DNA of 64,000 bases from a virus. Its lineage: Duplodnaviria; Heunggongvirae; Uroviricota; Caudoviricetes. The notes under the pieces are model-generated. The model did no database searches. It saw nothing but the letters and a program-made list of their open reading frames with translations, and was not told the origin of the DNA. The position numbers and the translations under genes were made by a program. The stretch spans positions 55,217 through 119,216 of IMG/VR virus record IMGVR_UViG_3300047274_000273. One strand, written 5' to 3'. Shown one piece after another: positions 1 through 28,567 of the stretch; position 1 is the stretch's first letter, and each line of letters begins with the position of its first letter.

Positions 1-345
1 TTTATCAAGCCCGATGTGGCTACCTACGTCATGGGACAGGCCTGCTCTATGGGATCATTCTTAGCTAATGCAGGAGCAGCAGGTAAGCGATTCATGCTGC
101 CTAATGCCCGTCACATGATCCATCAGCCATCGGGAGGCGCAAGAGGAATGGCATCAGATATCGAGATTTCCTATAAAGAGATCATGCATGTTAAAAAGCG
201 CCTTACGGAGTTGTATGTTAAACACAATACCAAAGGCAAGACCTACGAAGAGTTCGAAAGAGACATGGACCGTGACAAGTTCATGAGCGCAGAAGAAGCT
301 CTTGAATACGGACTCATTGACAAAATTATTGAGAAGCGACCATGA
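1..345 (+). CDS. clpP: ATP-dependent Clp protease proteolytic subunit ClpP, C-terminal part (5' end lies upstream of window)
   Basis: Frame-1 translation from nt 1 reads [21 protein letters not shown]...[17 protein letters not shown]...[13 protein letters not shown]. This matches the bacterial ClpP C-terminal half nearly residue for residue. Confidence 0.9.
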
Positions 346-743
346 CACAGAGATTAGAAGGTAAAGTAGACAAGGGTTGGGGATACGAGATCATTTGGGC
401 TACCAATGACAAATATGCAGGTAAGATCCTAGTATTTGAAAAGGTAGGTGCCAAGTTCAGTATGCATTTTCACAAAGAAAAAGACGAAACATGGTTCGTA
501 AATGCCGGCAGTTTCAAATTAATATATTGTGATACAAAAACAGCGACCTATCATGAAAAGATACTAAATGAAGGAGATGTTTGGAGAAATCCTCCTATGA
601 TGCCACATCAACTTATAGCTTTACAACCTAACTCAATGGTCTTTGAAGTTAGTACGCCCGATTCGGTAGAAGATAATTATCGAATTATTCCAGGAGATAG
701 TCAAAGTGCAACCAGCTCGCCAGAACAATCAACCAACACTTAG
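342..743 (+). CDS. cupin-fold protein (possible sugar-phosphate isomerase or epimerase)
   Basis: ATGA overlap with the clpP stop. Cupin motif G-x5-HxH-x3-E ([18 protein letters not shown]) and a second motif ([13 protein letters not shown]). Confidence 0.5.
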
Positions 744-1320
744 TTGGATAGGGGGAGAATTCCGAACTAAGTGTGTTATAGGTTTAGATCGGGACGGAGT
801 GATCAACAAAGACCTTGGTACATACTGTTATAAACCTGAAGACTTTGAAGCCATAGAAGGCAGTATGGAAGCTGTTGCTACTCTGCGCAGGAAAGGTTAC
901 AAGATAGTTGTGATAACAGATCAGGGCGGTATTGAGAAAGGACTGTATACGATGGAAGATGTAGACAAAGTCCACGAGAAGATGTTTGAGATGCTGGGTC
1001 AGGCCGGTTGCTCTAGTATTGATGCTCTTTACTATTCTGCTAGTAGTCGCAAGGAAGATCCTTTTGCCAAACCTAACACGGGCATGTTCAAACGCTGCGA
1101 AAAAGAAAATCCCGATATCAAATTCAAAGAAGGGTACTATGTAGGCGACAAGATCAAAGATCTTAAAGCCGCAGTCAACATGGGAGCAAAACCTATCCTT
1201 GTTCGAACTGGCTACGGACTAGAAACAGAAAAAGAATTGAATAAGTTTACCTACAGAGATCTTAAGAGACGCACAAAGATCTATGATAATCTTGCGGCCT
1301 TTGTTGAAAGCCTACCATGA
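706..1320 (+). CDS. HAD-superfamily phosphatase, GmhB-like (D,D-heptose 1,7-bisphosphate phosphatase family)
   Basis: N-terminal HAD motif VIGLDRDGVINKD; family IIIA layout (VVITDQGGI, GDKIKDL). The only ATG is at 706, so it overlaps the cupin ORF by 38 nt in another frame. Confidence 0.6.
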   Translation: MQPARQNNQPTLSWIGGEFRTKCVIGLDRDGVINKDLGTYCYKPEDFEAIEGSMEAVATLRRKGYKIVVITDQGGIEKGLYTMEDVDKVHEKMFEMLGQAGCSSIDALYYSASSRKEDPFAKPNTGMFKRCEKENPDIKFKEGYYVGDKIKDLKAAVNMGAKPILVRTGYGLETEKELNKFTYRDLKRRTKIYDNLAAFVESLP

Positions 1321-1721
1321 AGAAAGTAATTGTAAATGGAACTTTTGATATCTTCCACCTCGGGCACCTTAGATTATTGCAATACGCAAGGTCAGTACCT
1401 GACTCTTATGTATATGTTCTCATAGACAGTGACCGTCGAGTTAAACAACTCAAAGGTAATGACAGGCCTATACACAGCGAATACGAACGTGCAAGTTTCT
1501 TAGCAGCATTAAGAGCAGTCGATAGGGTAGATATATTTGACACCGATGACGAACTAATAAACTACATTAAAAACTTTGCTCCAGATATCATGGTCAAGGG
1601 CAGCGACTATAAAGATAAACCTATCATTGGAGCAGAATACTGCAAGAAGATTATATTCTATGACAGACTGGAAAAATACTCAACCACAAACAAAATACAA
1701 GATATTATTAATAGGAGATAA
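1317..1721 (+). CDS. heptose 1-phosphate adenylyltransferase (HldE domain II / HldC-like cytidylyltransferase fold)
   Basis: NGTFDIFHLGHLRLLQYAR (HxGH nucleotidyltransferase motif); RVKQLKGNDRP, VKGSDYK, STTNKIQDI. These align with the RfaE/HldE C-terminal domain. Confidence 0.75.
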   Translation: MKKVIVNGTFDIFHLGHLRLLQYARSVPDSYVYVLIDSDRRVKQLKGNDRPIHSEYERASFLAALRAVDRVDIFDTDDELINYIKNFAPDIMVKGSDYKDKPIIGAEYCKKIIFYDRLEKYSTTNKIQDIINRR

Positions 1722-2421
1722 CTGCGAAGATGTGTACCAATACGGCACTGTAGATCGCATATCACCCGAAGCACCTGTGCCGGTGTTTAAGTTTAGTCAC
1801 GAAGAACGTCGACCCGGTATGGCCGGTAACGTGGCTCGTAATCTAGAAGCACTAGGCTGTGAAGTTAATTACCTCCACGGCGAAACTTCGATCAAAACTA
1901 GATTAATTGATCGACGAAGCAAACAACATATTGTTAGAATCGACAATGATGTTACATCGAAGCCGATCGTCTTTGAAACAGAGATACCTAAAGCCTACGA
2001 CGCTATTGTCATCAGCGACTACAACAAAGGCACAGTTTCCTACGATATCATCGAGGAAGCCATCGCTACTAGAATTCCGGTATTCATAGATACTAAGAAG
2101 CCTGACCTCGAACACATGCAGGGTGCGTGGGTGAAGATCAACGAATTAGAATATAGTAAGATTAAATCAGAATGTTCTGGATTGATCGTTACACAGGGAT
2201 CGAAAGGTGCTCGTGCTGTACATCATGACCTTGAATTGCCTGCACCCAAGGTAGAAGTAGCGGATGTCACAGGTGCAGGTGATACATTTCTCGCAGCATT
2301 TGCCGTAGAGTTCATTAGACATAAAGATCTACGATCTGCCATGGAGTATGCTATACGAGCAGCTAGTATCACGGTACAGCACTTTGGTGTATACGCACCC
2401 ACAACTGAGGAACTTAAATGA
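1660..2421 (+). CDS. D-glycero-beta-D-manno-heptose 7-phosphate kinase (HldE domain I / HldA-like, PfkB family)
   Basis: KILLIGDNCEDVYQYGTVDRISPEAPVPV matches the HldE kinase N-terminus. C-terminal DVTGAGDTFLAAFA is the ribokinase-family anion-hole motif. Start taken at ATG 1660, giving a 62-nt overlap with the upstream gene. Confidence 0.75.
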   Translation: MTDWKNTQPQTKYKILLIGDNCEDVYQYGTVDRISPEAPVPVFKFSHEERRPGMAGNVARNLEALGCEVNYLHGETSIKTRLIDRRSKQHIVRIDNDVTSKPIVFETEIPKAYDAIVISDYNKGTVSYDIIEEAIATRIPVFIDTKKPDLEHMQGAWVKINELEYSKIKSECSGLIVTQGSKGARAVHHDLELPAPKVEVADVTGAGDTFLAAFAVEFIRHKDLRSAMEYAIRAASITVQHFGVYAPTTEELK

Positions 2422-3281
2422 TAGTCTTAACTGGAGCAGGTGGTTTTATTGGTAGTGTGATGTTGGGCTACCTCAACAAACAGGGCCGAGATGACGTTGT
2501 AATTTTCGATGATCTACCGCAGTCCAATCAATTTCAAAATCTAGTTGGCAAGAAGTACACTAACCTCTATAGGACACAGGATACCCCTGATCTAGATAAC
2601 ATAGAATGTGTGATACATCTAGGAGCCAACAGCAATACCCTAGAAAAAGATTGGAGTAGTATCTATAAGACCAACGTAGAATCTACTAGACTTTGGAATG
2701 CATTTTGTCTAGAACGTAACATTCCACTGATCTTTGCATCGTCTGCGGCGGTCTATGGTAATGGTCACGGTCCGATGAACCAATATGCATTTTCTAAACA
2801 TGTCAGTGAAAACGAAATCACTGCGGTGCGTCTTAGGCTGTTCAACGTCTACGGTCCAAACGAGCATCACAAAGGAGTCATGGCCAGTACAATCTACCAT
2901 TGGTATCAGCAGTTACAGTCGTCATCTAATATCAGGATCTTCCAAAATAGTAGACAGTACTTTAGAGATTTTATCTGGGTCGAAGATGTCTGTAAAACTA
3001 TCTATTATTTCATGACTAATTATCAGCCAGGCATCTACGATCTAGGCACAGGGAAACCCCGAGACTTTGAGTCTGTGGCTGATTTGGTCTTAAAGACAGT
3101 TGGACGTGGCGGAAAAACGTTTGTAGACATGTCTGAAGATCTCAAGGCACAGTACCAGACCTACACACGGGCTAACACAGATAGACTAGTTGAAGCAGGC
3201 GTACAGGTTCAAGAGTTCTTGGGCATAGAAGATGGTATTCCTCTATATATAGATTATCTCAAGAATGATTCTTACTATTAA
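2418..3281 (+). CDS. hldD: ADP-L-glycero-D-manno-heptose 6-epimerase-like NAD-dependent epimerase (HldD/RfaD family)
   Basis: [13 protein letters not shown] Rossmann start, short-chain epimerase layout, length 287 aa. Follows the HldE-like genes. Confidence 0.65.
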
Positions 3282-4465
3282 AATATCTGCTTGAGTGCAG
3301 ATACTAGGTCGCTCATCATGGCATCGTCATGATAGGGAGTAGGAGCGAATCTTAGTCTTTCGGTGCCTACCGCCACAGTTGGATAATTTATAGGCTGTAC
3401 ATAGATATTATAATCTGCCAGTAGTTGATCGCTCATGGCCTTGCATTTTTTAGCTTCCCCTACTAGTACAGGAACGATATGAGTAGTGCTGTCCATGACA
3501 GGTAGATCATTCTCTTTCAGCAGTTGTTTGAGCTTGGTAGCCCGCTCTTGATGGCGAACACGTATCTCGTTGTGATCTTTCAGCCATTTGACCGCAGCCA
3601 ATGCTCCTGCACAGGCCACAGGACTCATTGAAGTGGTAAAGATAAAACCAGCAGCTACCGAACGGATAGCATCAACGACATCTGCATCGGCAGCAATATA
3701 GCCACCTTGGACTCCAAAGGCCTTGCCTAGGGTACCATTGATTATATCAATCCTAGACTCTAGTCCGAGTTCTTCTACTTTTCCACCTCCGTGGGTTCCA
3801 TAGAGCCCTACCGCATGTACTTCGTCGATATAGGTAATGGCCTGATACTTGTCTGCGAGATCGCAGATATCTCGTATAGGTGATACATCACCGTCCATTG
3901 AGTAAACTGATTCAAATACTATACAGGGTGTATAGCCTGCGAGCTTTGAGGCTGCGAGTTTATCTTCTAGATCGTTTAGGTCATTGTGTTTGAAAACCTG
4001 TTTGGGGGCCTTAGAATGTTGTATGCCAACGATAAGGCTGTTGTGATTCTTACTGTCGCTGATAAATTGGATGTTATCAATGATCTTGCTCAGGGCAATG
4101 ATAGTCCACTCATTGGCCACATACGCAGAGCTGAACAGTAGAGCCTTGCTCTTATTGTGCAGCATGGCCAGTTCGTGTTCTAGGGCCACATGATAATGGC
4201 TGGTCCCCCCAATGTTACGAGTACCGCCCGAACCCGCGCCTGTTTGATCTAAGGCAGTGTGCATGGCATCTAGAACCACTTTGTGCTGCCCCATGCCTAG
4301 ATAGTCGTTGGAGCACCAATTAACTATAGTTTTAATGTTATAGGGACCGTACCAAATAGCACGAGGAAACTTGCCCGCTTCGCGAACGATGTCGTTAAAC
4401 ACGCGATATTTGCCCGTGTCTTTGAGATCTAGTATGAGTTTTTTAAAGGGTTCTTTGTTTATCAT
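3278..4465 (-). CDS. hemA: 5-aminolevulinate synthase (alpha-oxoamine synthase family, PLP-dependent)
   Basis: [63 protein letters not shown]. Alignable almost end to end with Rhodobacter-type ALAS. Confidence 0.8.
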
Positions 4466-11244: not shown

Positions 11245-12075
11245 ATGCAGCGAACTTACCGCAGTATCTTCATCTCGGATGTACACCTTGGCACCAAGGA
11301 CTGTAAGGCCGAGGCGCTGAACAATTTTCTCAAACATCACACCTGCGATACGCTATATCTCGTAGGCGACATTATCGATGCCTGGAAAATACAACAGAAC
11401 AAGTGGCGTTGGAAACAAACACATACAAATGTTGTAAGAAGAATACTAGGACATGCCAAGAGAGGAACTCGTGTGGTCTATGTCGCGGGAAATCACGATG
11501 AGTTTTTAAGACCTATGATCCCATATGATTTCTCATTTGGGCTGGTTGAAATCCACAATCAGATAGAACACATAGGTGCAGATGGTAAACACTATCTAGT
11601 AGTACATGGCGATCTGTTTGACGGTATTACCAGATTGGCACCTTGGTTGAGTTTCTTAGGTGACAAGGCCTACGACTTCGTTCTATATCTAAACAGCAGA
11701 TTTAATTGGATAAGGCATAAGCTAGGTTTTGGATACTGGAGTCTCAGTAAGTATCTTAAACACAAGGTCAAGAAAGCAGTTGATTTTATATTTCAGTTCG
11801 AAATAAATTTAGCTGCCTACTGCAAGAAAAGAGGGTTTGACGGTGTGATCTGCGGACACATACATCACGCAGAGATCAAAGAAGTAGACGGTATTATATA
11901 TATGAATGACGGAGATTGGGTTGAGTCAATGACGGCCTTAGTAGAACACTGGGATGGTCGTTGGGAGATAGTAACTTGGACCAAGGAGCGAGACGATGTG
12001 GTTGCTGATAATACTAGCGGTACACGCAAACAATCCGCAAGACGTGCCGGGAAGAATAGTTCTAAACTTCGATAG
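11245..12075 (+). CDS. LpxH-family calcineurin-like phosphoesterase (UDP-2,3-diacylglucosamine pyrophosphatase-like)
   Basis: IFISDVHLG, LYLVGDIIDAW, VYVAGNHDE, VVHGDLFDG, ICGHIHH. This is the LpxH-type metal-ligand pattern. Confidence 0.6.
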   Translation: MQRTYRSIFISDVHLGTKDCKAEALNNFLKHHTCDTLYLVGDIIDAWKIQQNKWRWKQTHTNVVRRILGHAKRGTRVVYVAGNHDEFLRPMIPYDFSFGLVEIHNQIEHIGADGKHYLVVHGDLFDGITRLAPWLSFLGDKAYDFVLYLNSRFNWIRHKLGFGYWSLSKYLKHKVKKAVDFIFQFEINLAAYCKKRGFDGVICGHIHHAEIKEVDGIIYMNDGDWVESMTALVEHWDGRWEIVTWTKERDDVVADNTSGTRKQSARRAGKNSSKLR

Positions 12076-12150
12076 CCAGGAACAATGCGAAAAGACATTA
12101 TCAACTATGACATATTGGCTTAAATTTGACAGCTTCAGGATCAAGGGTGA

Positions 12151-13161
12151 ATGCATAAAAAAATCTTAATCATAACAGATAACCTACCGGATCAGATAAA
12201 TGGCGTGGTTACGACCTTTAAGAATATTGAGGCACGTGCTTTTCTGGACGGGCATAGCATTCTATACCTTGATCCCAGGCAGTTCTTACATTTTAGTAGC
12301 CCAGGCTACCCTGAAGTTAAACTTAGCCTTCCTTGGAAGATCGGCAAGAAGATTGAGGCGATGGCTCCGGATTATATACACATCGCCACCGAAGGTCCTA
12401 TTGGTCTGTGTGCTAGACTTTATCTTGACCAACGCGGCTATCGTTACAATACTAGTTACCATACTAAGTTCCCTGAATTTCTAAACAAAATCTACAACAT
12501 TCCTGTGGCATGGACCTACGCATATATGAGATGGTTCCATAAACACAGCGGTAGAGTATTGACCACAACGCAGTCTATGGTCGATGAACTTAGAGAACAC
12601 GGATTCAAGGGAGACATACGGCCCTGGACACGCGGAGTAGATCGAGCTAACCTCAAACCTACTAAGATATATTCTCACAGCGCATACCTACACCTGAAGC
12701 CTATAGTTCTTTATGTGGGCAGAGTCAGCAAAGAAAAAGGTCTAGATGATCTGTGTAGATTGCAAGATGAGTTCTCTATAGAAGTCGTGGGTGACGGACC
12801 TTATAGAGAAGAATTGATGAAAATGTATCCCGGGGTAAAGTTTCTAGGATATCAAACAGGTGCAGAATTGGCCAACAGCTATTCTCGAGCAGATGTATTC
12901 TGCTTTCCTAGCCAGACTGATACATTTGGTATCGTTATCATCGAAGCTCTTAGCCTTGGAACCCCAGTGGCTGCTTATCCCGTGCAAGGTCCTATAGATA
13001 TCTTAGAAACAGGTATCACAGGACACATGAGTTGGGATTTGAAGCAGAGTATAGAGATAGCCAAGCTATACCCTAGAGAGCGAGTAGCAGAAGCCAGCAA
13101 GAAATGGTCTTGGGATGCCTGCTGGCAGATCTTCAAAGAAAATCTTATTCCGCTACGATAG
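12151..13161 (+). CDS. glycosyltransferase, GT-B fold (GT4 family)
   Basis: N-terminal ITDNLPDQINGVVTT and C-terminal EALSLGTPVAAYP motifs typical of GT4. Confidence 0.65.
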   Translation: MHKKILIITDNLPDQINGVVTTFKNIEARAFLDGHSILYLDPRQFLHFSSPGYPEVKLSLPWKIGKKIEAMAPDYIHIATEGPIGLCARLYLDQRGYRYNTSYHTKFPEFLNKIYNIPVAWTYAYMRWFHKHSGRVLTTTQSMVDELREHGFKGDIRPWTRGVDRANLKPTKIYSHSAYLHLKPIVLYVGRVSKEKGLDDLCRLQDEFSIEVVGDGPYREELMKMYPGVKFLGYQTGAELANSYSRADVFCFPSQTDTFGIVIIEALSLGTPVAAYPVQGPIDILETGITGHMSWDLKQSIEIAKLYPRERVAEASKKWSWDACWQIFKENLIPLR

Positions 13162-13732
13162 TATCGTAGATTTCTTTCCAGTTCTTGACTTTACGGATAC
13201 CTTCTTGATCGAAGTCCATGTTATGTCCGTGTTCTACGAGCAAGGGTCTAAGACCTACATTTAGACCTGCGACACAATTGGTAAACTTATCTTCAATCCA
13301 CCAATAGTTTTTGCCTCGATACTGCTCAAGAACTTCATCTTTGTCTGCACCTGTTTCTAGGATGATAAATTTGGTAAATGCTGTCTTACCAAATAGCTTA
13401 CAGAGATTCATCTTGCGTAGAGCCTGGGCATTTTCATCTGAACTCATTGATGTGATACAATGGAACACATACCCATGCTCTTCGTGTAGTCTTTTTACAT
13501 AGTACATGGCATCACGCAGAGGGGGCAAGAAACCCATGTGCGCAGATTCATTGAAGATTTTGATTAGTTTTTTTGACTGCTCTTTTTCGATTCCATAGCG
13601 TTTGGCTATGTCATATTTGAACTGCCAATCATCTTGTTTTTGGAAGCCGTGTTGTTCCATCCAAACTGAGAATGCGAACTCCCAATCAAGGAGAACACCG
13701 TCTGCATCGGTTAAAATAATTTTATTTTTCAT
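13145..13732 (-). CDS. HAD hydrolase, 5'(3')-deoxyribonucleotidase-like
   Basis: N-terminal ILTDADGVLLDW (DxDG motif). Served by a consensus promoter that places the TSS on the start codon. Confidence 0.55.
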   Translation of the reverse strand: MKNKIILTDADGVLLDWEFAFSVWMEQHGFQKQDDWQFKYDIAKRYGIEKEQSKKLIKIFNESAHMGFLPPLRDAMYYVKRLHEEHGYVFHCITSMSSDENAQALRKMNLCKLFGKTAFTKFIILETGADKDEVLEQYRGKNYWWIEDKFTNCVAGLNVGLRPLLVEHGHNMDFDQEGIRKVKNWKEIYDTIVAE

Positions 13733-13738
13733 ACTGCT

Positions 13739-13767
13739 ATTATATACTCAGTTAATGATTATGTCAA
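13739..13767 (-). promoter_or_regulatory. consensus sigma70 promoter (TTGACA-17-TATAAT) giving a leaderless transcript for the HAD gene
   Basis: Minus-strand reading: TTGACA (13767-13762), 17-nt spacer, TATAAT (13744-13739). The predicted +1 falls on the ATG at 13732. Confidence 0.6.
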
Positions 13768-13813
13768 CCACTAGGACATTGCCATAAATATTGAACACAG
13801 TAAGGACAGACCA

Positions 13814-14434
13814 ATGTTAGAAACAATATGTGATATACTAGTAGAATCTTATAAACGAAATTGGATTACCAGCAGAGACGGTAATATCAGCATCCGCCAT
13901 CATGATCGAGACCATTTTTACGTAACGCCCAGTGGTGTTCGTAAGCAGACCATGCAGCCCGATCAGTTTAAAAAGATAGCCATAATTAATAGCAAAGATT
14001 GGACTGAATTGCCCTATAGCGATATCAGCATAGGGCTTAGGCCCACAGGAGAAATGCCTCTACATTTTGGCCTCCAGAGAAAAATTCATACGGACGAAGT
14101 TCGTGTCGTAACTCATATCCACCCTACCTATATCGTAGCTGCCATGCATGCTGGTATCGAACTCTGTGAATTAGTCAAAGACTTCCCTGAACTTAGTCGG
14201 TATACTAGAGTAGCACCTAATGTAGGTGATGTACCTCCTATTTCACAAGAACTAGGCGATCAGTGTCACAAAAACCTGGGTTTAAATGAAGAAACTGGAG
14301 AGATTAAGTATGATATCGTAGGAATAAAAGGTCACGGGGTCGTGGCCATAGATTCTACGCCGTGGCGTAGTTTCGAACATATAGAGCGTCTAGAACATAT
14401 CTGTAAGATAGTTTTAGCCTCTGGGAATTATTAA
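13814..14434 (+). CDS. class II aldolase/adducin-family protein
   Basis: SRDGNISIRH, YVTPSGV, VVTHIHPTY. Class II aldolase/epimerase signature. Confidence 0.55.
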   Translation: MLETICDILVESYKRNWITSRDGNISIRHHDRDHFYVTPSGVRKQTMQPDQFKKIAIINSKDWTELPYSDISIGLRPTGEMPLHFGLQRKIHTDEVRVVTHIHPTYIVAAMHAGIELCELVKDFPELSRYTRVAPNVGDVPPISQELGDQCHKNLGLNEETGEIKYDIVGIKGHGVVAIDSTPWRSFEHIERLEHICKIVLASGNY

Positions 14435-15138
14435 TGCTAACAATCTTATATACCCTAGTGATGGTACAAATCACTATTGCTTGTGTTACACTTTATCTAC
14501 ATCGTAGCCAAGCCCATAGATCAGTTCACTTTCATCCAGCGGTCGCACACTTCATGAGATTCTGGTTATGGCTGACCACAGGCATGAATACTCGAGAATG
14601 GGTAGCAGTCCATCGCAAACATCATCAGGCTGCTGATACAAGCGCAGATCCGCACAGCCCAAAAATATACGGTATTTGGCGTGTGTTATTTGGTGGTGCT
14701 CTGTTATATGTCAAGGCCAAGAGAAACAAGATACTTGTCAACGAATTGGGTCATGGCACACCCAGTGATTGGATTGAAGAAAAAGTTTATACTCCCCATC
14801 CTTACTTCGGGATTCTATTGATGTTGGTCATAGACCTTATTCTTTTTGGCCCGGTAGGAATAGTGGTATGGGGAGTTCAAATGCTATGGATACCTTTCTG
14901 GGCTGCAGGTGTAATCAACGGGCTTAGTCATTGGTGGGGTTACAGAGTATCAAATACTAACGATACTTCGAGGAATCTGTGGCCGCTGGCTATATGGATC
15001 GGCGGTGAAGAACTACATAACGGACATCACAGTGACGGAGCGAATGCAAAATTTAGTCAACGATGGTATGAAGTTGACATTGGATGGATATACATTTGTA
15101 TCCTGAGATTTTTTAAGCTAGCTAAAGTTAGGGCATAA
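14434..15138 (+). CDS. membrane fatty-acid desaturase (acyl-CoA/acyl-lipid delta-9 desaturase family)
   Basis: Three His boxes (HRSQAHRS, HRKHH, HNGHH) and hydrophobic spans. Confidence 0.75.
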   Translation: MLTILYTLVMVQITIACVTLYLHRSQAHRSVHFHPAVAHFMRFWLWLTTGMNTREWVAVHRKHHQAADTSADPHSPKIYGIWRVLFGGALLYVKAKRNKILVNELGHGTPSDWIEEKVYTPHPYFGILLMLVIDLILFGPVGIVVWGVQMLWIPFWAAGVINGLSHWWGYRVSNTNDTSRNLWPLAIWIGGEELHNGHHSDGANAKFSQRWYEVDIGWIYICILRFFKLAKVRA

Positions 15139-23034: not shown

Positions 23035-24624
23035 ATGGCTGTCGTACAGATCTCTAAAATACAAGTCCGCAGAGGACAGAAATTATCAGGTATAGGCATA
23101 CCTCAATTAAGTTCGGCCGAATTTGCATGGGCTGTTGACACGCAGGAATTATACATCGGCAACGGCAGTGTTGCTGAGGGCGCACCTTATGTGGGCAACA
23201 CCAAGGTCCTAACCGAACACGACAATATTCTAGAACTAGCATCTAGCTATAGATTCGCTAGTGTAGATCCTAGCATTTCTCTCAGCATTTCTCGTACCCT
23301 ACAGAGTAAACTAGATGAGTATGTGAGTATATTAGATTTCGGAGCAGTACCAGACGGCTCTACAGATTGTTTGGCCAGCTTCCAGAATGCGCTAAATCAG
23401 CTGTTTAGAAATCCCGATGACAAGTTTAAGAAAACACTGTTGATACCAAACGGTGTATATCTACTCACAGGAAACCTAAATGTTCCTAGCACCGCTAAGA
23501 TCGCAGGAGAAACCAGAGATGGTGCTGTATTAGAAATAGGTGACAACAACATTCTTTTTGTGACCGAAGACGGCGAAGGTGTGGCAAATTTCAACAGCAG
23601 CAACAGACCAAGAAATGTTTCTATTTCAAACCTAACCATCAGCCATAATCTAGGCGAGCTAGTACTCACTGGCTTGGCCGATAGTTCTGTTACCGGAGTT
23701 AGATTTAAATCTAGCTATGTGCTTGGCGACTCCATTGGAGCAGTTGAATCTCATCCTGCTTCTATATTCTGGGAAAATTCTTTACCGGGAACTAAAGTAA
23801 CAGACATTCGCATCGACGATTGTTTATTCGAAAGCACAGCATTGGCTATTAGGAGTGATCAGATCACTGTTGACTCTAGTTCTCCTCCTAATTTTGAAAC
23901 ACATATAGATATTACCAACTGTAAGTTCTACGTCTGTGATTCTGCTATCGTGATCAACGGCATAGCATCACAGGGCAATAAGTGGCATGTTGATCATTGC
24001 CATTTCGAAGAGATATCTCAATACGCTTTTAGAGCATCAAACGGTCGAGGAACGTTGATCAGATACTGTACACTGACCAACTGCGGCAACTTAACCAACA
24101 CAGCAGCATACCCAGTCAGCGAAATGATCTACTTTGGCGAAAGCGAAGGTAACAGAGTCATAGAGTGTTCGACTAACAGACACCAGTCGGGCGGTATCGT
24201 GTCTGTGAGCACTGTTGATGCTAAAGTAGAAGTATATAACTCTAGTCTAACATCACTGAATGATCAATACTATTCTGATATCTTTTTATCAGACAGTTTT
24301 AGACCGTTGGCCGTATTATCAGCTTTCAATAGGTTTACATATGTAGACTATACTCTTAGATTGAACAATCATGTTAGAGCCGGTAGACTTACTATCATGG
24401 TTGATGCTACACTAGGAGAATATAGTTTCGCAGATAATTATACCTATTCAACACCTTTCGCAACATCCCCAGGAGGAGTTCTAATGACAAACTTTGAATT
24501 TCAAGCAGAATTAAAAGACAATGACCTAGACAGCGGTATAGAAACCCTATTATTGTCATACCAGAACCCTATTAGTACTGGCGCTATCGGAACGATTTCC
24601 TACTCTGTGACCTACGGTGTTTGA
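23035..24624 (+). CDS. right-handed beta-helix (pectate-lyase-like) fiber or tailspike protein
   Basis: N-terminal IQVRRG...ELYIGNG motif seen in phage fiber proteins; repetitive N/S/T-rich beta-helix-like body. Confidence 0.45.
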   Translation: MAVVQISKIQVRRGQKLSGIGIPQLSSAEFAWAVDTQELYIGNGSVAEGAPYVGNTKVLTEHDNILELASSYRFASVDPSISLSISRTLQSKLDEYVSILDFGAVPDGSTDCLASFQNALNQLFRNPDDKFKKTLLIPNGVYLLTGNLNVPSTAKIAGETRDGAVLEIGDNNILFVTEDGEGVANFNSSNRPRNVSISNLTISHNLGELVLTGLADSSVTGVRFKSSYVLGDSIGAVESHPASIFWENSLPGTKVTDIRIDDCLFESTALAIRSDQITVDSSSPPNFETHIDITNCKFYVCDSAIVINGIASQGNKWHVDHCHFEEISQYAFRASNGRGTLIRYCTLTNCGNLTNTAAYPVSEMIYFGESEGNRVIECSTNRHQSGGIVSVSTVDAKVEVYNSSLTSLNDQYYSDIFLSDSFRPLAVLSAFNRFTYVDYTLRLNNHVRAGRLTIMVDATLGEYSFADNYTYSTPFATSPGGVLMTNFEFQAELKDNDLDSGIETLLLSYQNPISTGAIGTISYSVTYGV

Positions 24625-25061: not shown

Positions 25062-27395
25062 ATGAGCATAACAGTAATTAAAAGAAACGGAACGAAAGAA
25101 CTATTAACGATTGAAAAATGGCAGGCTCAGGTAAACAAGGTCTGTAAAGGTATAGCTGACGTAAGTCAGTCAATGATTGAAATCAAAGCGCAGGTAAATT
25201 TTTACGATGGTATCACTACAAAAGAAATCGATGAGATAACTCTTCGAGCCATCGTCGATCTCATCGATGTAGAACATAATCCAGATGTTGGTCATACCAA
25301 CTATCAATACGTGGCAGGCAAGCAAAGACTCAGCATGCTACGAAAAGATGTATATGGTTCCTACGAACCGCCCCATCTATACGAACTAGTCAAAAAAAAT
25401 GTAGCCGTGGGACTGTACACTCCTGAACTACTAGAGTGGTACAGTGAAGATGATTGGAATCGCATGAACGACATCATCGACCACAGCAAAGACGAAGACT
25501 ATTCTTATGCAGCCATTGAGCAGTTAATTGAAAAATATCTAGTACGTAATCGCGCTACTAAAGAAATTTATGAAACACCCCAGGTCAGATACATGATAGC
25601 GGCTGCTACGGTATTTCACAAAGAAGAGCCCAACACAGCTCGTATGCGTTACATCAAGGAGTATTATAATGCAGCTTCAGACGGTCTATTTACTCTCGCT
25701 ACTCCTGTTCTTGCTGGCCTTGGCACTCCCACTAAGCAGTTCAGTAGTTGTGTGCTCATTCGCAGTGATGATGATCTTGACTCCATTTTTGCTAGTGGCG
25801 AAATGATGGCCAAATATGCCAGCAAACGTGCTGGTATTGGTCTGGAGATTGGACGTCTAAGATCGCTAGGTAGCCCCATCAGAGGCGGCGAAATCATGCA
25901 CACCGGCATGATTCCCTTTTTGAAGAAATGGTTTGGTGATTTAAGGAGTTGCAGTCAAGGTGGTATTAGAAACGCATCTGCTACAGTTTTTTATCCTATT
26001 TGGCATCATCAGTTTGACGACCTCATCGTTCTTAAGAACAATCAAGGAACTGAAGAAACTCGCGTTCGACACATGGACTACGGAGTTGTACTATCAGCGT
26101 TCTTTTGGCGTAGGTTTAAAAATAAAGAAAATATTACTTTCTTTGATCCTAATGAAGTGCCTGATCTCTACGAAGCATTTTACAAAGACACAAAATTATT
26201 TGAAGAATTATATGTAAAATATGAAAAGCGCCGCGACCTACGTAAGAAAGTCATGGGTGCTGAAGAAGTTTTCAAGGGTGGTATACTGAAAGAACGCACA
26301 GACACGGGTCGCATCTATTTGGTGTTTATTGATAATGTAATGAATCAAGGACCATTCGATCCTGAATATCATACGATATATCAGAGTAACCTGTGCTGTG
26401 AGATCCTATTACCCACACGTCCATTCAAACGACTCGACGACGACAGTGGTCGCATAGCGTTATGTACACTGGGATCTATCAACTGGGGTGCGTTCCGAAA
26501 TCCAGAGGATATGCGTAGAGCCTGTAGGATTCTACAGCGTAGCCTGTGTAACATCCTTGATTACCAGGATTTCTTATCGATACAGAGCAAGCTGTCAAAC
26601 GATGAAATCCAACCGCTGGGCATCGGTGTTACTAACCTAGCCTATTGGCATGCGAAGAGGAGTATCAAATATGGCGACAAGGACGCATTGGCAGAAGTTA
26701 AAAGTTGGATGGAGCATCAGGCCTTTTACCTTACGGAAGCGACCGTTGAACTCGCAAAAGAAAGAGGCAGATGCAAAGACTCAGACAAAATCTGGTACGG
26801 AAGAGGAATCTTCCCCTGGGAAAGAAGATCGCAAGGTGTTAACGAGCTCGCTGATTTTTCGCCCGAACTCGATTGGGAATCACTGAGACAGGAGATGAAA
26901 ACTCATGGTGTACGAAATGCTACTCTTATGGCTATTGCTCCAGTTGAGTCTAGCTCTGTTGTTATTAATAGCACAAATGGAATAGAAATGCCCATGAGTC
27001 TGATCTCAACTAAAGAAAGCAAAGCAGGATCGTTTACACAGGTCGTGCCTGAGTACCACAAGTTGAAGAACAAATATCAGTTGATGTGGGATCAAAAAGA
27101 CTGTTCAGGATATCTCAAGACTGCGGCAGTATTAGCGGCCTATGTTGATCAGAGCATTTCAACAAATACATTTTATAATCCGGCACACTTCCCGGATCGC
27201 AAAGTACCAACTACATTGATCGCTAAAAATCTAATGCAGGCTCAACTATGGGGTATTAAAACGTTCTACTATAGTTTAATTAACAAAGCAGGTAGTAAGA
27301 GTCAAGATCTTACACCCGAAGTACACTACAATGGTTTTCATAATGAAAGAGAACTAATCGAAGACGATGCCGACTGCGAATCTTGCAAGTTGTAA
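25062..27395 (+). CDS. nrdA: ribonucleoside-diphosphate reductase large subunit (class Ia, with ATP cone)
   Basis: N-terminal ATP-cone (VIKRNGTKE); active-site NLCCEI and C-terminal CESCKL thiol pair. Confidence 0.9.
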   Translation: MSITVIKRNGTKELLTIEKWQAQVNKVCKGIADVSQSMIEIKAQVNFYDGITTKEIDEITLRAIVDLIDVEHNPDVGHTNYQYVAGKQRLSMLRKDVYGSYEPPHLYELVKKNVAVGLYTPELLEWYSEDDWNRMNDIIDHSKDEDYSYAAIEQLIEKYLVRNRATKEIYETPQVRYMIAAATVFHKEEPNTARMRYIKEYYNAASDGLFTLATPVLAGLGTPTKQFSSCVLIRSDDDLDSIFASGEMMAKYASKRAGIGLEIGRLRSLGSPIRGGEIMHTGMIPFLKKWFGDLRSCSQGGIRNASATVFYPIWHHQFDDLIVLKNNQGTEETRVRHMDYGVVLSAFFWRRFKNKENITFFDPNEVPDLYEAFYKDTKLFEELYVKYEKRRDLRKKVMGAEEVFKGGILKERTDTGRIYLVFIDNVMNQGPFDPEYHTIYQSNLCCEILLPTRPFKRLDDDSGRIALCTLGSINWGAFRNPEDMRRACRILQRSLCNILDYQDFLSIQSKLSNDEIQPLGIGVTNLAYWHAKRSIKYGDKDALAEVKSWMEHQAFYLTEATVELAKERGRCKDSDKIWYGRGIFPWERRSQGVNELADFSPELDWESLRQEMKTHGVRNATLMAIAPVESSSVVINSTNGIEMPMSLISTKESKAGSFTQVVPEYHKLKNKYQLMWDQKDCSGYLKTAAVLAAYVDQSISTNTFYNPAHFPDRKVPTTLIAKNLMQAQLWGIKTFYYSLINKAGSKSQDLTPEVHYNGFHNERELIEDDADCESCKL

Positions 27396-27457
27396 ACTAT
27401 AAGTTTTCTGTAAAAATGGATGGATCCCAACACAAGATATCGAATGGAAAAATATAA

Positions 27458-28567
27458 ATGAGCAAACAACAATATAATTTACAAACAAAGACAGATTATC
27501 TTAACCGTAAGATGTTCCTAGATCCAGCGGGTCCAGTTACCATCCAACGATTCGAAGAAGTCAAGTATAACAAGATTGCAGACTTTGAAAAAACTGCACG
27601 TGGTTTCTTTTGGGTTCCTGAAGAAATTTCGTTAACCAAAGACGCACAAGATTTCAAGGATGCATCAGATGCGGTCAAACATATCTTCACTAGCAATCTG
27701 CTTAGGCAAACTGCTCTTGACAGTCTGCAAGGTCGCGGCCCAAGTCAAATCTTTACTCCGGTCGTAAGCCTCCCTGAGTTAGAAAGTCTTGTCTACAATT
27801 GGACATTCTTTGAAACTAATATTCATAGTCGTTCATACAGCCACATCATTCGTAACATCTACAACGTGCCTAAGGAAGTGTTTAACACTATCCATGACAC
27901 TAAAGAAATTGTTGACATGGCAAGTAGTGTTGGCAAGTACTATGATTATCTACATAGATTAAACTGCCGGAAAGAACTCAATGACAATGGTATCGCAGTC
28001 AGCGAAGAAGAACATATCAAATCTATTTGGCTGGCATTGAACGCTAGTTATGCCTTAGAAGCGTTCCGTTTTATGGTATCATTCGCTACAAGCCTAGCCA
28101 TGGTAGAGAATAAGATCTTTATTGGTAACGGTAATATCATCAGCCTAATCCTACAAGACGAGCTACTACACAAAGGCTGGACTGCCTGGTTGATCAATCA
28201 AGTAGTTAAGGAAGACCCGCGTTTTGCTCGAGCTAAACAAGAGTGTGAAGCTGAAGTCTATGAACTGTACATGGATGTGATCCGTGAGGAAAAACAGTGG
28301 GCAGATTATCTGTTCAAGAAAGGTCCTGTGATCGGTCTGAACGCTAACATCCTAAAAGATTTTGTCGACTATACCGCAGCCACCGGATTAAAAGAAATTG
28401 GTATTCGTTATCAACAGGCTGCTCCAAAATCAACTCCGATTCCTTGGTTTAACAAGCATAGCGACACCAGCAAAAAGCAGACCGCTCTACAGGAAAGCGA
28501 AAGTACCAATTATGTAATCGGTGTGATGAGTGAAAAAATCGACTACGAAGAATTACCGGCTATATAA
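27458..28567 (+). CDS. nrdB: ribonucleoside-diphosphate reductase small subunit
   Basis: Di-iron / tyrosyl-radical ligand pattern (E..H...E, ESxxxNYV C-terminus). Confidence 0.85.
   Translation: MSKQQYNLQTKTDYLNRKMFLDPAGPVTIQRFEEVKYNKIADFEKTARGFFWVPEEISLTKDAQDFKDASDAVKHIFTSNLLRQTALDSLQGRGPSQIFTPVVSLPELESLVYNWTFFETNIHSRSYSHIIRNIYNVPKEVFNTIHDTKEIVDMASSVGKYYDYLHRLNCRKELNDNGIAVSEEEHIKSIWLALNASYALEAFRFMVSFATSLAMVENKIFIGNGNIISLILQDELLHKGWTAWLINQVVKEDPRFARAKQECEAEVYELYMDVIREEKQWADYLFKKGPVIGLNANILKDFVDYTAATGLKEIGIRYQQAAPKSTPIPWFNKHSDTSKKQTALQESESTNYVIGVMSEKIDYEELPAI

Follow-up and report, generated by a model that had tools for sequence, protein, structure and literature searches.

Introduction

The isomerization of sedoheptulose 7-phosphate is normally catalyzed by the SIS-fold protein GmhA, which acts with HldE, GmhB, and HldD in the E. 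coli pathway. Heptose genes also occur in viruses. T4-like cyanophages carry clusters annotated as “LPS/heptose” genes, including P-SSM2 (PSSM2_309-313), S-CAM1, S-CAM3, S-SSM7, S-SM2, P-TIM68, and others. An alternative heptose route is represented by a viral module consisting of a SIS isomerase, a GHMP kinase, a HAD::NT protein, and an SDR; of 22 viral loci picked by their SIS gene, 21 carry this module.

Here we analyzed the window, a whole stretch of 64 kb of viral DNA, in which a five-gene ADP-heptose set (342-3281, plus strand) lies immediately 3' of clpP (Table 1). The window encodes proteins homologous to GmhB, to each of the two HldE domains, and to HldD of the E. coli pathway, and the chemistry of steps 2-5 would be alike. 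In contrast to E. coli, it has a cupin in the cassette instead of a SIS-type GmhA, and the two HldE domains are encoded by separate genes that stand in reversed order and overlap by 62 nt; moreover, no GT9 heptosyltransferase is encoded near the cassette. The window also differs from the alternative heptose route, since it has neither a SIS isomerase nor a GHMP kinase.

The cyanophage clusters are similar to the window in that they contain matching protein families, including the cupin and the HldD-like SDR (approximately 37-44% protein identity), and an adenylyltransferase gene followed by a kinase gene with a +1 overlap of 41-80 nt. However, their gene order is different, the epimerase is on the opposite strand, and the neighbors are carbamoyltransferase and tail fibre genes, while those in the window are clpP and 5-aminolevulinate synthase. 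Their HAD protein is a small EcbF/BcbF-type protein of 106-114 aa, mis-annotated as a phosphoheptose isomerase, whereas that of the window is a GmhB-type HAD-IIIA protein. The cassette is thus not unique and was previously annotated in P-SSM2 and other T4-like cyanophages.

On balance, we favor the view that this coupled operon encodes a self-contained route from sedoheptulose 7-phosphate, a pentose-phosphate intermediate, to ADP-L-glycero-beta-D-manno-heptose, with the cupin as the isomerase. [quoted passage not shown] The PfkB kinase would then form the beta-1,7-bisphosphate (step 2), the HAD-IIIA phosphatase would remove the 7-phosphate (step 3), the adenylyltransferase would convert heptose 1-phosphate to ADP-D,D-heptose (step 4), and the HldD-like SDR would epimerize C6 (step 5). 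If this is correct, a cupin has been swapped in for GmhA, the usual first enzyme, in thousands of marine phages and some very small archaea.

Gene organization and the adenylyltransferase/kinase overlap

Table 1. Features of the cassette and its surroundings in the window.
Feature	Position	Strand	Remarks
clpP, 3' part	16..345	+	PF00574 6.8e-43; context, upstream in the same coupled string
Cupin, 133 aa, single-domain metal cupin	342..743	+	Proposed sedoheptulose-7-phosphate isomerase (GmhA analogue)
GmhB-like HAD phosphatase	706..1320	+	GTG start; NF006506 2.1e-41
HldE-domain-II-type adenylyltransferase	1317..1721	+	TIGR02199 3e-31; PF01467 2.7e-15
HldE-domain-I-type PfkB kinase, 253 aa	1660..2421	+	TIGR02198 1.9e-46; PF00294 1.7e-21
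Dual-coding overlap, 62 nt	1660..1721	+	3' end of the adenylyltransferase gene in frame 0, 5' end of the kinase gene in frame +1
HldD-like ADP-glyceromanno-heptose 6-epimerase (SDR)	2418..3281	+	TIGR02197 3.8e-72
GT4/GT1-family glycosyltransferase	12151..13161	+	PF00534 7e-21; PF13439 5.8e-15

An ORF check located all five ORFs where the first-pass annotation had placed them downstream of clpP. The sequence, read directly, contains ATGA start/stop overlaps at 342-345 (clpP/cupin), 1317-1320, and 2418-2421, and the cupin and HAD genes overlap by 38 nt, with AGGAG located 9 nt upstream of the HAD GTG at 706. The five genes are translationally coupled and form one operon that continues from clpP. 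The clpP-cupin gene order was also found in loci L005-L007.

The kinase and the adenylyltransferase are, as first annotated, separate overlapping genes in the reverse of the HldE order, both in the window and in related loci. The kinase ORF is open from 1576 and ends at 2421, its sole ATG is at 1660, and the N-terminus from this ATG is co-linear with residue 1 of E. coli HldE in the alignment. In 27 of 28 related split-gene loci, including those of cyanophages, the kinase is in the +1 frame, and its start codon (ATG in 24 of the 27) falls within the 3' end of the adenylyltransferase gene, by 41-92 nt. Because the overlap is kept in these loci, the arrangement in the window is not a product of chance or error.

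The annotation had further proposed a fusion of the two proteins by +1 frameshifting, and the open kinase frame back to 1576 and the conservation of the +1 overlap are in line with a programmed ribosomal frameshift within 1576-1721. However, among approximately 120 related loci, the fusions are all kinase-adenylyltransferase, in the canonical order, or cupin-adenylyltransferase, and no adenylyltransferase-kinase fusion ORF was found in these loci or in 150 cluster representatives. Most split loci have an ATG where the HldE N-terminus aligns, and a shift would cost the adenylyltransferase its conserved C-terminal STTN segment. The frameshift proposal is unsupported by these results, and we regard such a fusion as extremely improbable. 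The overlap would instead be an inherited layout in which the kinase is initiated independently, at the ATG at 1660, and not a frameshift site.

Enzymes assigned to steps 2-5

The best NCBIfam models were compared for each of the four enzymes, and the GmhB, RfaE domain II, RfaE domain I, and HldD models far outscored TagD, ribokinase, and GalE, although all four scores were below the curated equivalog cut-offs. The HAD protein matched NF006506 (GmhB) best, with 141 bits against a cut-off of 178, and the SDR scored 243 bits with TIGR02197 (HldD) against a cut-off of 274.6. The adenylyltransferase matched the RfaE domain II model far better than the TagD-type TIGR01518 (1e-13) and also matched phrog_7878 (1.5e-37), while the kinase matched the RfaE domain I model far better than ribokinase (4e-16). 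Thus, neither the TagD-type nor the ribokinase model, either of which would have pointed to unrelated families, was the best match.

Catalytic motifs are retained in all four proteins. The LDRDGV, VITDQ, KP, and GDKIKD motifs of the HAD protein align with E. coli GmhB, in which alignment the Zn-binding cysteines of the GmhB loop are absent from the window protein, and the FHLGH and STTN motifs of the adenylyltransferase align with E. coli HldE residues 331-477. The kinase keeps ISPEAPVPV and DVTGAGDT, but has two deletions relative to HldE and is approximately 45-60 aa shorter than bacterial domain I. The nucleotide-binding segment and HKGVMAS of the SDR align with the HldD nucleotide-binding motif and the positions of the catalytic Tyr/Lys/Lys. 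The first-pass assignment to the ADP-heptose pathway is upheld by these matches, with homology and the retained catalytic motifs as the basis for assigning steps 2-5.

The sub-cut-off scores of the four enzymes, the deletions in the kinase, and the missing Zn loop would also suit a cassette that makes another nucleotide sugar, such as an NDP-hexose, via a PMI-like cupin and a kinase and transferase of relaxed specificity. In addition, the cupin of SynMITS9220M01 is located beside a GHMP kinase and a different nucleotidyltransferase. We consider this very unlikely, since four independent best matches lead to one pathway by wide margins, only heptose routes use the kinase-phosphatase-transferase logic that proceeds through a 1,7-bisphosphate, and GT9 heptosyltransferases adjoin or are fused to the module in archaeal and other relatives.

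Absence of SIS-type GmhA

The reported lack of a SIS-domain GmhA was borne out across the window: a profile built by jackhmmer from E. coli GmhA as seed detected no SIS/GmhA ORF in the 64 kb, nor did the profile after it had been broadened by 22 viral SIS sequences. No SIS gene was present near the cupin in any of 80 sampled viral loci, and when 50,697 phage records were searched by tblastn with two GmhA queries, only 1 of the approximately 35 records holding the cupin was matched. The “phosphoheptose isomerase” of the cyanophages has no SIS similarity and is in reality a small HAD phosphatase with a DIDGT motif (TIGR01689, 1e-8). Viral SIS GmhA genes belong to a separate module, adjoining a GHMP (HddA-like) kinase in 21 of the 22 loci selected by SIS, in which the PfkB kinase is absent. 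In SynMITS9220M01 and contig L108, the cupin and SIS GmhA are both present, each in its own module; thus, the two are not strictly exclusive.

Similarity of the cupin to sugar isomerases

PMI converts a ketose phosphate to a manno-configured aldose phosphate, the C6 counterpart of the GmhA reaction. Type II PMI cupins (PF01050; the C-terminus of ManC/CpsB/AlgA) and the minimal cupin PMI of Thermococcus kodakarensis (PDB 7zvy) are single small metal-site cupins, like the window protein. Its metal ligands are inferred to be H42, H44, E49, and H89, a His/His/Glu/His site that is invariant over three cupin clades of 31-46% mutual identity; K11, W13, E16, Y25, K28, K47, E102, S104, T105, D111, and R114 are also invariant (alignments A1 and A3). 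These additional polar residues point to a conserved small polar substrate.

The window protein matched Cupin_1/Cupin_2, PF01050 (0.0033), and Lyx_isomer (0.014), and within the family Lyx_isomer was matched in 38 of 52 members and PF01050 in 16 of 52. Using hhalign, we obtained E 0.0018 with the C-terminal cupin of E. coli CpsB and 0.1 with RfbC; KGWG, Y-GK, and SxHxHxxKxE-W of the window protein were paired with RPWG, Y-VK, and SxQxHxxRxE-W of the CpsB/ManC PMI-type domain. The AlphaFold2 model (pLDDT 88) suggests a fold whose top matches include structures of minimal cupin PMI, of D-lyxose isomerase, and of cupin PGI. The protein is similar to PMI and D-lyxose-isomerase cupins rather than to RmlC, and no dTDP-sugar-epimerase signature was seen.

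The protein nevertheless differs from PMI cupins. Its PF01050 score (18.1 bits) is under the gathering score of 23.6, which archaeal and some other members exceed; the first metal ligand is His, not Gln; a C7 sugar is proposed as substrate; and the transferase that it partners belongs to the cytidylyltransferase-like class. Among phosphoglucose isomerases, which comprise cupin and SIS types, archaeal cPGI (e.g. PDB 1j3p, approximately 190 aa) belongs to another cupin family, and no sequence-level match of the window cupin to it was seen.

CapF is fused to a reductase and acts on a free 4-keto nucleotide sugar from a dedicated dehydratase. It is rather unlikely that the cupin is instead a metal-dependent epimerase of the CapF/WbuC kind that uses ADP-heptose or a keto intermediate as substrate, gives a modified heptose, and leaves isomerization to host GmhA. 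CapF had a low rmsd in Foldseek, and WbuC TIGR04366 was the best specific NCBIfam match (1.9e-6), but with 27.8 bits against a cut-off of 42, while Cap5F was weak (E 0.06 by profile); aldose-ketose isomerases were the consistent family matches. No partner of the kind known for the CapF C-terminal cupin/WbuC in the UDP-L-FucNAc pathway is present in the window, and the cassette has no dehydratase or oxidase to furnish a free keto-sugar. Its single SDR retains the equivalents of the HldD catalytic residues, so that no helper is needed for 6-epimerization. The co-occurrence of the cupin with SIS GmhA and the frequency of incomplete auxiliary pathways in phages, with certain cassettes having no phosphatase nearby, favor the epimerase, as do a few fusions of the cupin to SDRs or adenylyltransferases; however, most of its fusions are to the kinase, the step after isomerization.

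Distribution and linkage of the module

At least 578 viral contigs carry the module. Within 6 kb of the cupin, the 80 sampled IMG/VR loci had an adenylyltransferase (80/80), an epimerase (80/80), and a PfkB kinase (79/80). As the cupin was the basis for selecting these loci, the census speaks to heptose genes accompanying the cupin and not to the reverse. The 150 best cluster representatives include at least 14 fusions of the cupin with the kinase, with either protein first, as well as fusions with the adenylyltransferase, with HAD phosphatases, with SDRs, and with a PF00483 nucleotidyltransferase, the last of which (P0421) mirrors ManC. Fusion types include cupin-kinase-NT, kinase-NT-cupin, and GT9-cupin-kinase.

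Woesearchaeota chromosomes contain a five-gene operon in the order cupin-SDR (epimerase)-PfkB kinase-HAD-NT (adenylyltransferase), that is, one gene per step of the five-step pathway, and no SIS gene was present within 10 kb of these operons. The contigs are truly cellular, as ribosomal proteins, eIF2-gamma, and histone are encoded nearby. If the cupin were an epimerase, this operon would be left without step 1. The module is a mobile cassette common to T4-like marine myoviruses and Woesearchaeota/Nanoarchaeota chromosomes, with several gene orders and fusion states.

Some close homologues of the cupin stand alone, far from heptose genes; that of Marinoscillum pacificum (61% identical) is located beside radical-SAM and methyltransferase genes. 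Such homologues are consistent with a cupin that is linked to sugar-nucleotide building but not catalytic in it, namely a glycan dioxygenase/hydroxylase, a sugar-binding regulator, or a hitch-hiker. The PHROG label of the family (“cysteine dioxygenase”), the high fold and sequence matches to cysteine dioxygenase, quercetinase, and oxalate decarboxylase, and weak JmjC_2 matches in 36 of 52 members agree with such a role. We regard it as distinctly unlikely, since dioxygenase-type matches reflect the generic metal-cupin core, many polar residues besides the metal ligands are invariant, and the linkage to kinase, adenylyltransferase, and epimerase extends across phage clades and archaea, with multiple fusions to pathway enzymes. 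A cupin-type sedoheptulose-7-phosphate isomerase, as initially proposed, is the reading that best fits the linkage, the lack of SIS, the archaeal operons, the fusions, and the likeness to PMI and lyxose isomerase, which together give it substantial comparative support.

Possible use of ADP-heptose

The LPS of marine Synechococcus WH8102 and CC9311 has no heptose (PMC4515613), and WH8102 is a recorded host of cassette-bearing phages. Heptose-free LPS in cyanobacterial hosts also argues against the epimerase alternative, in which host GmhA would isomerize the substrate. Remodelling of the LPS core by the phage copy, as first suggested, is doubtful, and the accompanying remark on ADP-heptose as a PAMP is irrelevant to a marine phage. 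A glycosyltransferase encoded elsewhere would probably use the product to glycosylate a component of the virion or of the host surface. No GT9 heptosyltransferase was detected in the window, and the GT4/GT1 glycosyltransferase, which might, speculatively, consume the cassette product, is the only protein near the cassette that is recognizable as a candidate for using a nucleotide sugar.

The cupin as a candidate isomerase

Our analysis suggests that the cupin may serve as a sedoheptulose-7-phosphate isomerase analogous to GmhA, an assignment toward which, in our judgment, the balance tips slightly. The first-pass annotation had raised this idea. The comparative context (gene linkage, fusions, an archaeal operon, the absence of an SIS protein and PMI-like features) supports it, and from this context we infer the catalysis itself. 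In the proposed pathway, the cupin would convert sedoheptulose-7-phosphate to D-glycero-D-manno-heptose-7-P by metal-dependent enediol isomerisation, the PfkB kinase would form the beta-1,7-bisphosphate, the HAD-IIIA phosphatase would yield the beta-1-phosphate, the adenylyltransferase would produce ADP-D,D-heptose, and the HldD-like SDR would convert this to ADP-L,D-heptose.

The four classical enzymes

NCBIfam models with curated cut-offs and pairwise alignment to the E. coli proteins were used to compare the four remaining enzymes. A heptose-pathway model was the top match of each by a wide margin, in agreement with the pathway first annotated. The HAD phosphatase matched GmhB best (NF006506, 2.1e-41, 141.4 bits vs a cut-off of 178; TIGR00213, 87.3 bits, cut-off 149.6), and all four HAD motifs (DxDx[TV], [ST], K and [DE]D) were aligned to E. 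coli GmhB as LDRDGV, VITDQ, KP and GDKIKD. The Zn-binding Cys/His loop of E. coli GmhB was not kept, the corresponding segment being shorter and without cysteines (YYSASS--RKEDPFAKP vs CPHH...CDCRKP). The adenylyltransferase scored highest with RfaE domain II (TIGR02199, 3e-31, 108.2 bits vs a cut-off of 181.5; TagD-type glycerol-3-phosphate cytidylyltransferase TIGR01518, 1e-13, 51.6 bits) and, in alignment with E. coli HldE, keeps the HxGH motif as FHLGH and the C-terminal STTxI-type motif as STTN. Likewise, the top model of the kinase was RfaE domain I (TIGR02198, 1.9e-46, 158.7 bits vs a cut-off of 345; ribokinase model, 4e-16, 59.2 bits), and the HldE alignment shows the PfkB motif DVTGAGDT, with the GAGD anion-hole/catalytic residues, and an ISPEAPVPV segment. 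Being 253 aa long and carrying two deletions compared with residues 1-330 of HldE, this kinase is not a full-length domain. Grouping of these two proteins with unrelated PfkB or TagD families, which had been named as a possible objection, was not observed, the RfaE models being clearly ahead. The epimerase narrowly missed the HldD cut-off (TIGR02197, 3.8e-72, 243.1 bits vs 274.6), with GalE as the next family (3e-13, 49 bits). It contains the HldD motif set of GxxGxxG, catalytic Ser, YxxxK and a second catalytic Lys, and in alignment with E. coli HldD a 20-residue segment and HKGVMAS correspond to the nucleotide-binding and catalytic Tyr/Lys/Lys positions. Because all four scores fall under the curated equivalog cut-offs, the four enzymes are, as judged from their sequences, divergent members of the heptose-pathway families.

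Gene arrangement

The ORF positions in the window agree with the five genes originally annotated. ATGA start/stop overlaps join clpP to the cupin gene (342-345), the HAD gene to the adenylyltransferase gene (1317-1320) and the kinase gene to the epimerase gene (2418-2421). The cupin and HAD genes share 38 nt; the HAD gene can start only at the GTG at 706, which follows AGGAG at 692-696. Coupled translation probably leads to co-expression of the five genes with clpP.

The adenylyltransferase and kinase genes overlap by 62 nt, and the sole ATG of the kinase, at 1660, lies in the +1 frame, which is open from 1576. Since the N-terminus starting at this ATG is co-linear with residue 1 of E. coli HldE in pairwise alignment, the kinase start requires no frameshift. 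The kinase starts in the +1 frame, 41-92 nt inside the adenylyltransferase gene, in 27 of 28 loci with separate genes (with ATG in 24 of the 27); therefore, the overlap is an inherited, conserved arrangement. The earlier suggestion that a +1 shift could fuse the two enzymes was not supported. No adenylyltransferase-kinase fusion occurred among the surveyed loci, which comprised about 70 with a kinase-adenylyltransferase fusion in the order of canonical HldE, about 32 with separate genes, adenylyltransferase then kinase (the window and the cyanophages among them), and 3 with a cupin-adenylyltransferase fusion. Such a shift would also cost the adenylyltransferase its conserved STTN C-terminus. 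The split, overlapping HldE genes are a conserved variant common to the window and published cyanophages.

In 71 viral loci (e.g. contig L014, 7499-7945), the gene just upstream of the fused HldE-like gene encodes a NUDIX hydrolase, and NUDIX::cupin and cupin::SDR::NUDIX fusion proteins (P0392 and P0497) were also observed. The NUDIX protein may be an ADP-sugar pyrophosphatase tied to the pathway.

Coordinates of features in the window and in related loci
Locus	Feature	Position	Strand	Remark
Window	clpP 3' end	16-345	+	PF00574 6.8e-43; cassette entirely 3' of clpP
Window	Five cassette ORFs	342-3281	+
Window	Cupin	342-743	+
Window	HAD phosphatase	706-1320	+
Window	Adenylyltransferase	1317-1721	+
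Window	Kinase	1660-2421	+
Window	Epimerase	2418-3281	+
Window	5-Aminolevulinate synthase	3278-4465	-	TIGR01821 577 bits, above cut-off 338; convergent with cassette end
Window	Metallophos phosphoesterase	11245-12075
Window	GT4/GT1 glycosyltransferase	12151-13161		9 kb downstream of cassette
Window	Class II aldolase-like	13814-14434
Window	Fatty-acid desaturase	14434-15138
Window	Tail-spike-like protein, pectate-lyase fold	23035-24624
Window	Class I ribonucleotide reductase, large and small subunits	25062-28567		phrog_84 7e-266; phrog_86 3e-111
P-SSM2	Adenylyltransferase	PSSM2_309		First in order
P-SSM2	Kinase	PSSM2_310		41-nt overlap with PSSM2_309
P-SSM2	'Phosphoheptose isomerase'	PSSM2_311, L001 6716-7060
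P-SSM2	Cupin	PSSM2_312		PHROG label 'cysteine dioxygenase'
P-SSM2	Epimerase	PSSM2_313		Opposite strand
S-CAM3	Orthologue of PSSM2_311	gp150, L002 6749-7069
Woesearchaeota	Operon loci	L155/L156 10001-13992; L157 2968-13152

Absence of an SIS-domain GmhA

A jackhmmer profile seeded with E. coli GmhA, and later widened by 22 viral SIS sequences, detected no SIS/GmhA ORF across all six reading frames of the 64-kb window, confirming for this stretch the lack of GmhA noted in the first-pass annotation. The same profile does recover viral homologues at 24-30% identity. An SIS protein was likewise found in 0 of the best 80 viral cupin loci, anywhere in the locus, and tblastn with E. coli GmhA and a marine viral SIS as queries found SIS in only one cupin-bearing phage record, SynMITS9220M01. 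Viral contigs selected for SIS carried a module of GHMP (HddA-like) kinase, SIS, HAD/adenylyltransferase and SDR, without a PfkB kinase, in 21 of 22 cases. SIS is kept in the GHMP-kinase type of module, and therefore each viral heptose module has one candidate isomerase.

Two heptose-type modules stand side by side in the cyanophage SynMITS9220M01 (MT408532.1, 154309-164001; locus L158) and in contig L108 (6488-12346). One is a kinase-cupin-nucleotidyltransferase-SDR set, and the other a GHMP kinase-SIS GmhA-HAD::adenylyltransferase-HldD-like set. These two cases show that cupin and SIS do not strictly exclude each other; nor is the cupin strictly paired with a PfkB kinase, as in SynMITS9220M01 it stands with a GHMP kinase and another type of nucleotidyltransferase. 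The double module suggests synthesis of two different NDP-heptoses. The presence of both modules would also suit a cupin that acts as a CapF/WbuC-like epimerase.

A 'phosphoheptose isomerase' is annotated in cyanophages. PSSM2_311 and its S-CAM3 orthologue showed no SIS similarity by Pfam, NCBIfam or BLASTP against GmhA; both have DIDGT as their HAD motif and fall with the capsule phosphatases of the EcbF/BcbF family (TIGR01689, 1e-8 and 4e-9). These proteins are small HAD phosphatases and are ruled out as the missing GmhA; thus, the cyanophage cassettes are also without GmhA, and their phosphatase step employs a different HAD from that of the window. The label appears to have been propagated among cyanophage annotations, and our analysis corrects this mis-annotation. 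'Phosphoheptose isomerase [gmhA]' has been counted as a marine viral AMG marker (PMC9238414), and the gene behind that label may be another.

Distribution and genomic context

No DNA near-identical to the window was found among 50,697 phage records, a collection from which the phage itself is absent. The kinase and cupin queries each matched about 35 phage records at 36-44% identity. Apart from four kinase matches (a pair of uncultured phages, a fragment of a fecal phage and a mis-filed Salmonella genome), these were T4-like cyanophages or marine single-virus genomes, including P-SSM2, P-SSM5, S-CAM1, S-CAM3, S-SSM7, S-SM2, S-T4 and P-TIM68. As a phage auxiliary module, the cassette is of a known kind, and papers that mention its cyanophage genes list them only among auxiliary genes related to LPS or heptose (PMC7029224, PMC7378029).

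The cupin family comprised 2,767 and 4,368 clusters at 90% identity with two queries and 7,707 representatives at 50%, and at least 578 IMG/VR contigs encode it. Among the best 80 viral loci, an adenylyltransferase and an epimerase lay within 6 kb of the cupin in all 80, a PfkB kinase in 79 and an HAD in 35; as the loci were chosen via the cupin, this census shows its companions, not how often phage heptose genes occur without it.

A clade of 749 clusters belongs to Woesearchaeota/Nanoarchaeota. The archaeal contigs are truly cellular, reaching 322 kb and carrying genes for ribosomal proteins, eIF2-gamma, eRF1 and histone nearby. Here the cupin gene is the first of an operon that continues with an HldD-like SDR, a PfkB kinase, an HAD and an adenylyltransferase, followed by GT2. 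The five genes equal the five pathway steps, and no SIS was found within 10 kb of the operon. In one genome (L157), the operon adjoins AglB/STT3 and a GT9 heptosyltransferase, which suggests heptose in the surface or N-glycans of DPANN archaea. A PF00483 nucleotidyltransferase gene is divergently adjacent in all three Woesearchaeota loci (L155, L156 and L157).

Gene fusions were surveyed in the best 150 cupin representatives. The commonest partner was the kinase, the enzyme of the step after the proposed isomerisation: at least 14 fusions to a PfkB kinase occurred, with either protein first, among them cupin-kinase-adenylyltransferase, kinase-adenylyltransferase-cupin and GT9-cupin-kinase. In the same set, the cupin was fused to an adenylyltransferase 3 times, to HAD phosphatases 4-5 times, and also to SDRs, NUDIX and a PF00483 nucleotidyltransferase, the last being the ManC architecture in reverse.

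The LPS of marine Synechococcus WH8102 and CC9311 contains no heptose (PMC4515613). Phages that bear the cassette are on record as infecting WH8102, so heptose-7-phosphate cannot be taken as supplied by the host.

Cupin genes also occur alone. A stand-alone cupin of the cultured Bacteroidota Marinoscillum pacificum MRN461 (L094, 9989-10375), which shares 61% identity with the phage protein, is oriented divergently from a methyltransferase gene and two radical-SAM genes of the B12-binding type, is syntenic with contig L092, and has no heptose genes within 10 kb. It possibly reflects transfer from phage to cell, or else a second role of the family. In Marinoscillum and Poriferihabitaceae, loci with the cupin alone have unrelated genes or mobile elements as neighbors and give no functional clue.

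Sequence and fold of the cupin

The family proteins are 118-133 aa long. Two cupin motifs and the beta-barrel fold were recognized, the AlphaFold2 model being confident (pLDDT 88), and the classical cupin metal ligands H42, H44, E49 and H89 are invariant. Residues K11, W13, E16, Y25, K28, K47, E102, S104, T105, D111 and R114 are also invariant across three clades that are just 31-46% identical.

Beyond generic cupin models, family members matched D-lyxose isomerase (38 of 52), PF01050, the PMI C-terminal domain (16 of 52), and, weakly, JmjC_2 (36 of 52). The window cupin itself scored 18.1 bits against PF01050, below the gathering score of 23.6, which is exceeded by an orthologue of the archaeal clade (L124, 25.1) and by P0421 (26.9) and P0418 (24.9). 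In hhalign, columns 11-67 of the family alignment A1 were aligned to residues 365-421 of E. coli CpsB, in its PMI-type domain (KGWG...Y-GK...SxHxHxxKxE-W vs RPWG...Y-VK...SxQxHxxRxE-W) at E 0.0018, but with a probability of just 15%; the first metal ligand is Gln in this type II PMI domain and His in the cupin. PMI and lyxose isomerase convert a ketose to a manno-configured aldose, and GmhA catalyzes the same reaction on a C7 sugar.

None of the 52 members matched the RmlC family (dTDP_sugar_isom, PF00908), and hhalign against E. coli RfbC gave E 0.1 and a probability of 0.6%. Unlike the metal-free RmlC-like His/Tyr site, that of the window cupin is a metal site. The dTDP-sugar epimerase signatures that had been proposed as a counter-indication are thus lacking. 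The epimerase alternative of the CapF/WbuC kind draws on the CapF cupin, which acts as a C3 epimerase on nucleotide sugars and is the best structural match, and on the best specific NCBIfam match, WbuC (TIGR04366); the latter reaches only 27.8 of the 42 bits required, however, and ORF and domain searches found no CapE/FnlA-type dehydratase in the cassette. We consider this alternative unlikely, and other cupin roles less likely still. Since the sequence and fold searches return the entire metal-cupin superfamily, including quercetinase, oxalate decarboxylase, KdgF, CapF, cysteine dioxygenase, PMI and lyxose isomerase, no function can be assigned from them, and their use is limited to excluding RmlC-like epimerases.

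Implications of a possible isomerase role

No report linking a cupin to the heptose isomerase step was found in the literature searched, a corpus without most subscription journals, and the assignment of the cupin as a GmhA analogue appears new. A broader claim, to which we give an even chance, is that cupin isomerases of 118-133 aa form a new family that replaces SIS GmhA non-orthologously and accompanies the other ADP-heptose pathway genes in thousands of marine T4-like phages and on Woesearchaeota/Nanoarchaeota chromosomes. This 15-kDa protein represents a candidate analogous enzyme family with a very wide environmental distribution. If the assignment is true, the well-known ADP-heptose pathway would have a second enzyme for its first step, unrelated to GmhA, and provide a further SIS/cupin analogy, for which phosphoglucose isomerases are the precedent; searches for gmhA only would miss heptose makers among these phages and DPANN archaea. 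It would also mean that phages make ADP-heptose from a Calvin-cycle/pentose-phosphate intermediate even in hosts with heptose-free LPS, such as marine picocyanobacteria, raising the question of what very abundant ocean phages glycosylate with heptose when the host LPS has none.

Profile searches found no GT9 heptosyltransferase in the 64-kb window, and relatives of the cassette stand amid tail-fibre and virion genes; therefore, LPS-core remodelling, suggested in the first-pass annotation, is not the obvious purpose, above all where the relatives in cyanophages are concerned. It is as likely that components of the virion or the host surface are glycosylated.

Other genes of the window

The 5-aminolevulinate synthase gene keeps its place beside the heptose cassette in the related contigs L005-L007. 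This enzyme belongs to the C4 (Shemin) route, typical of alphaproteobacteria, and may hint at the host. An auxiliary-looking gene run lies downstream of the virion genes at 11245-15138, and the product of 33062-33736 matches PF26128 (Gad2), a family named for a phage anti-Gabija protein.
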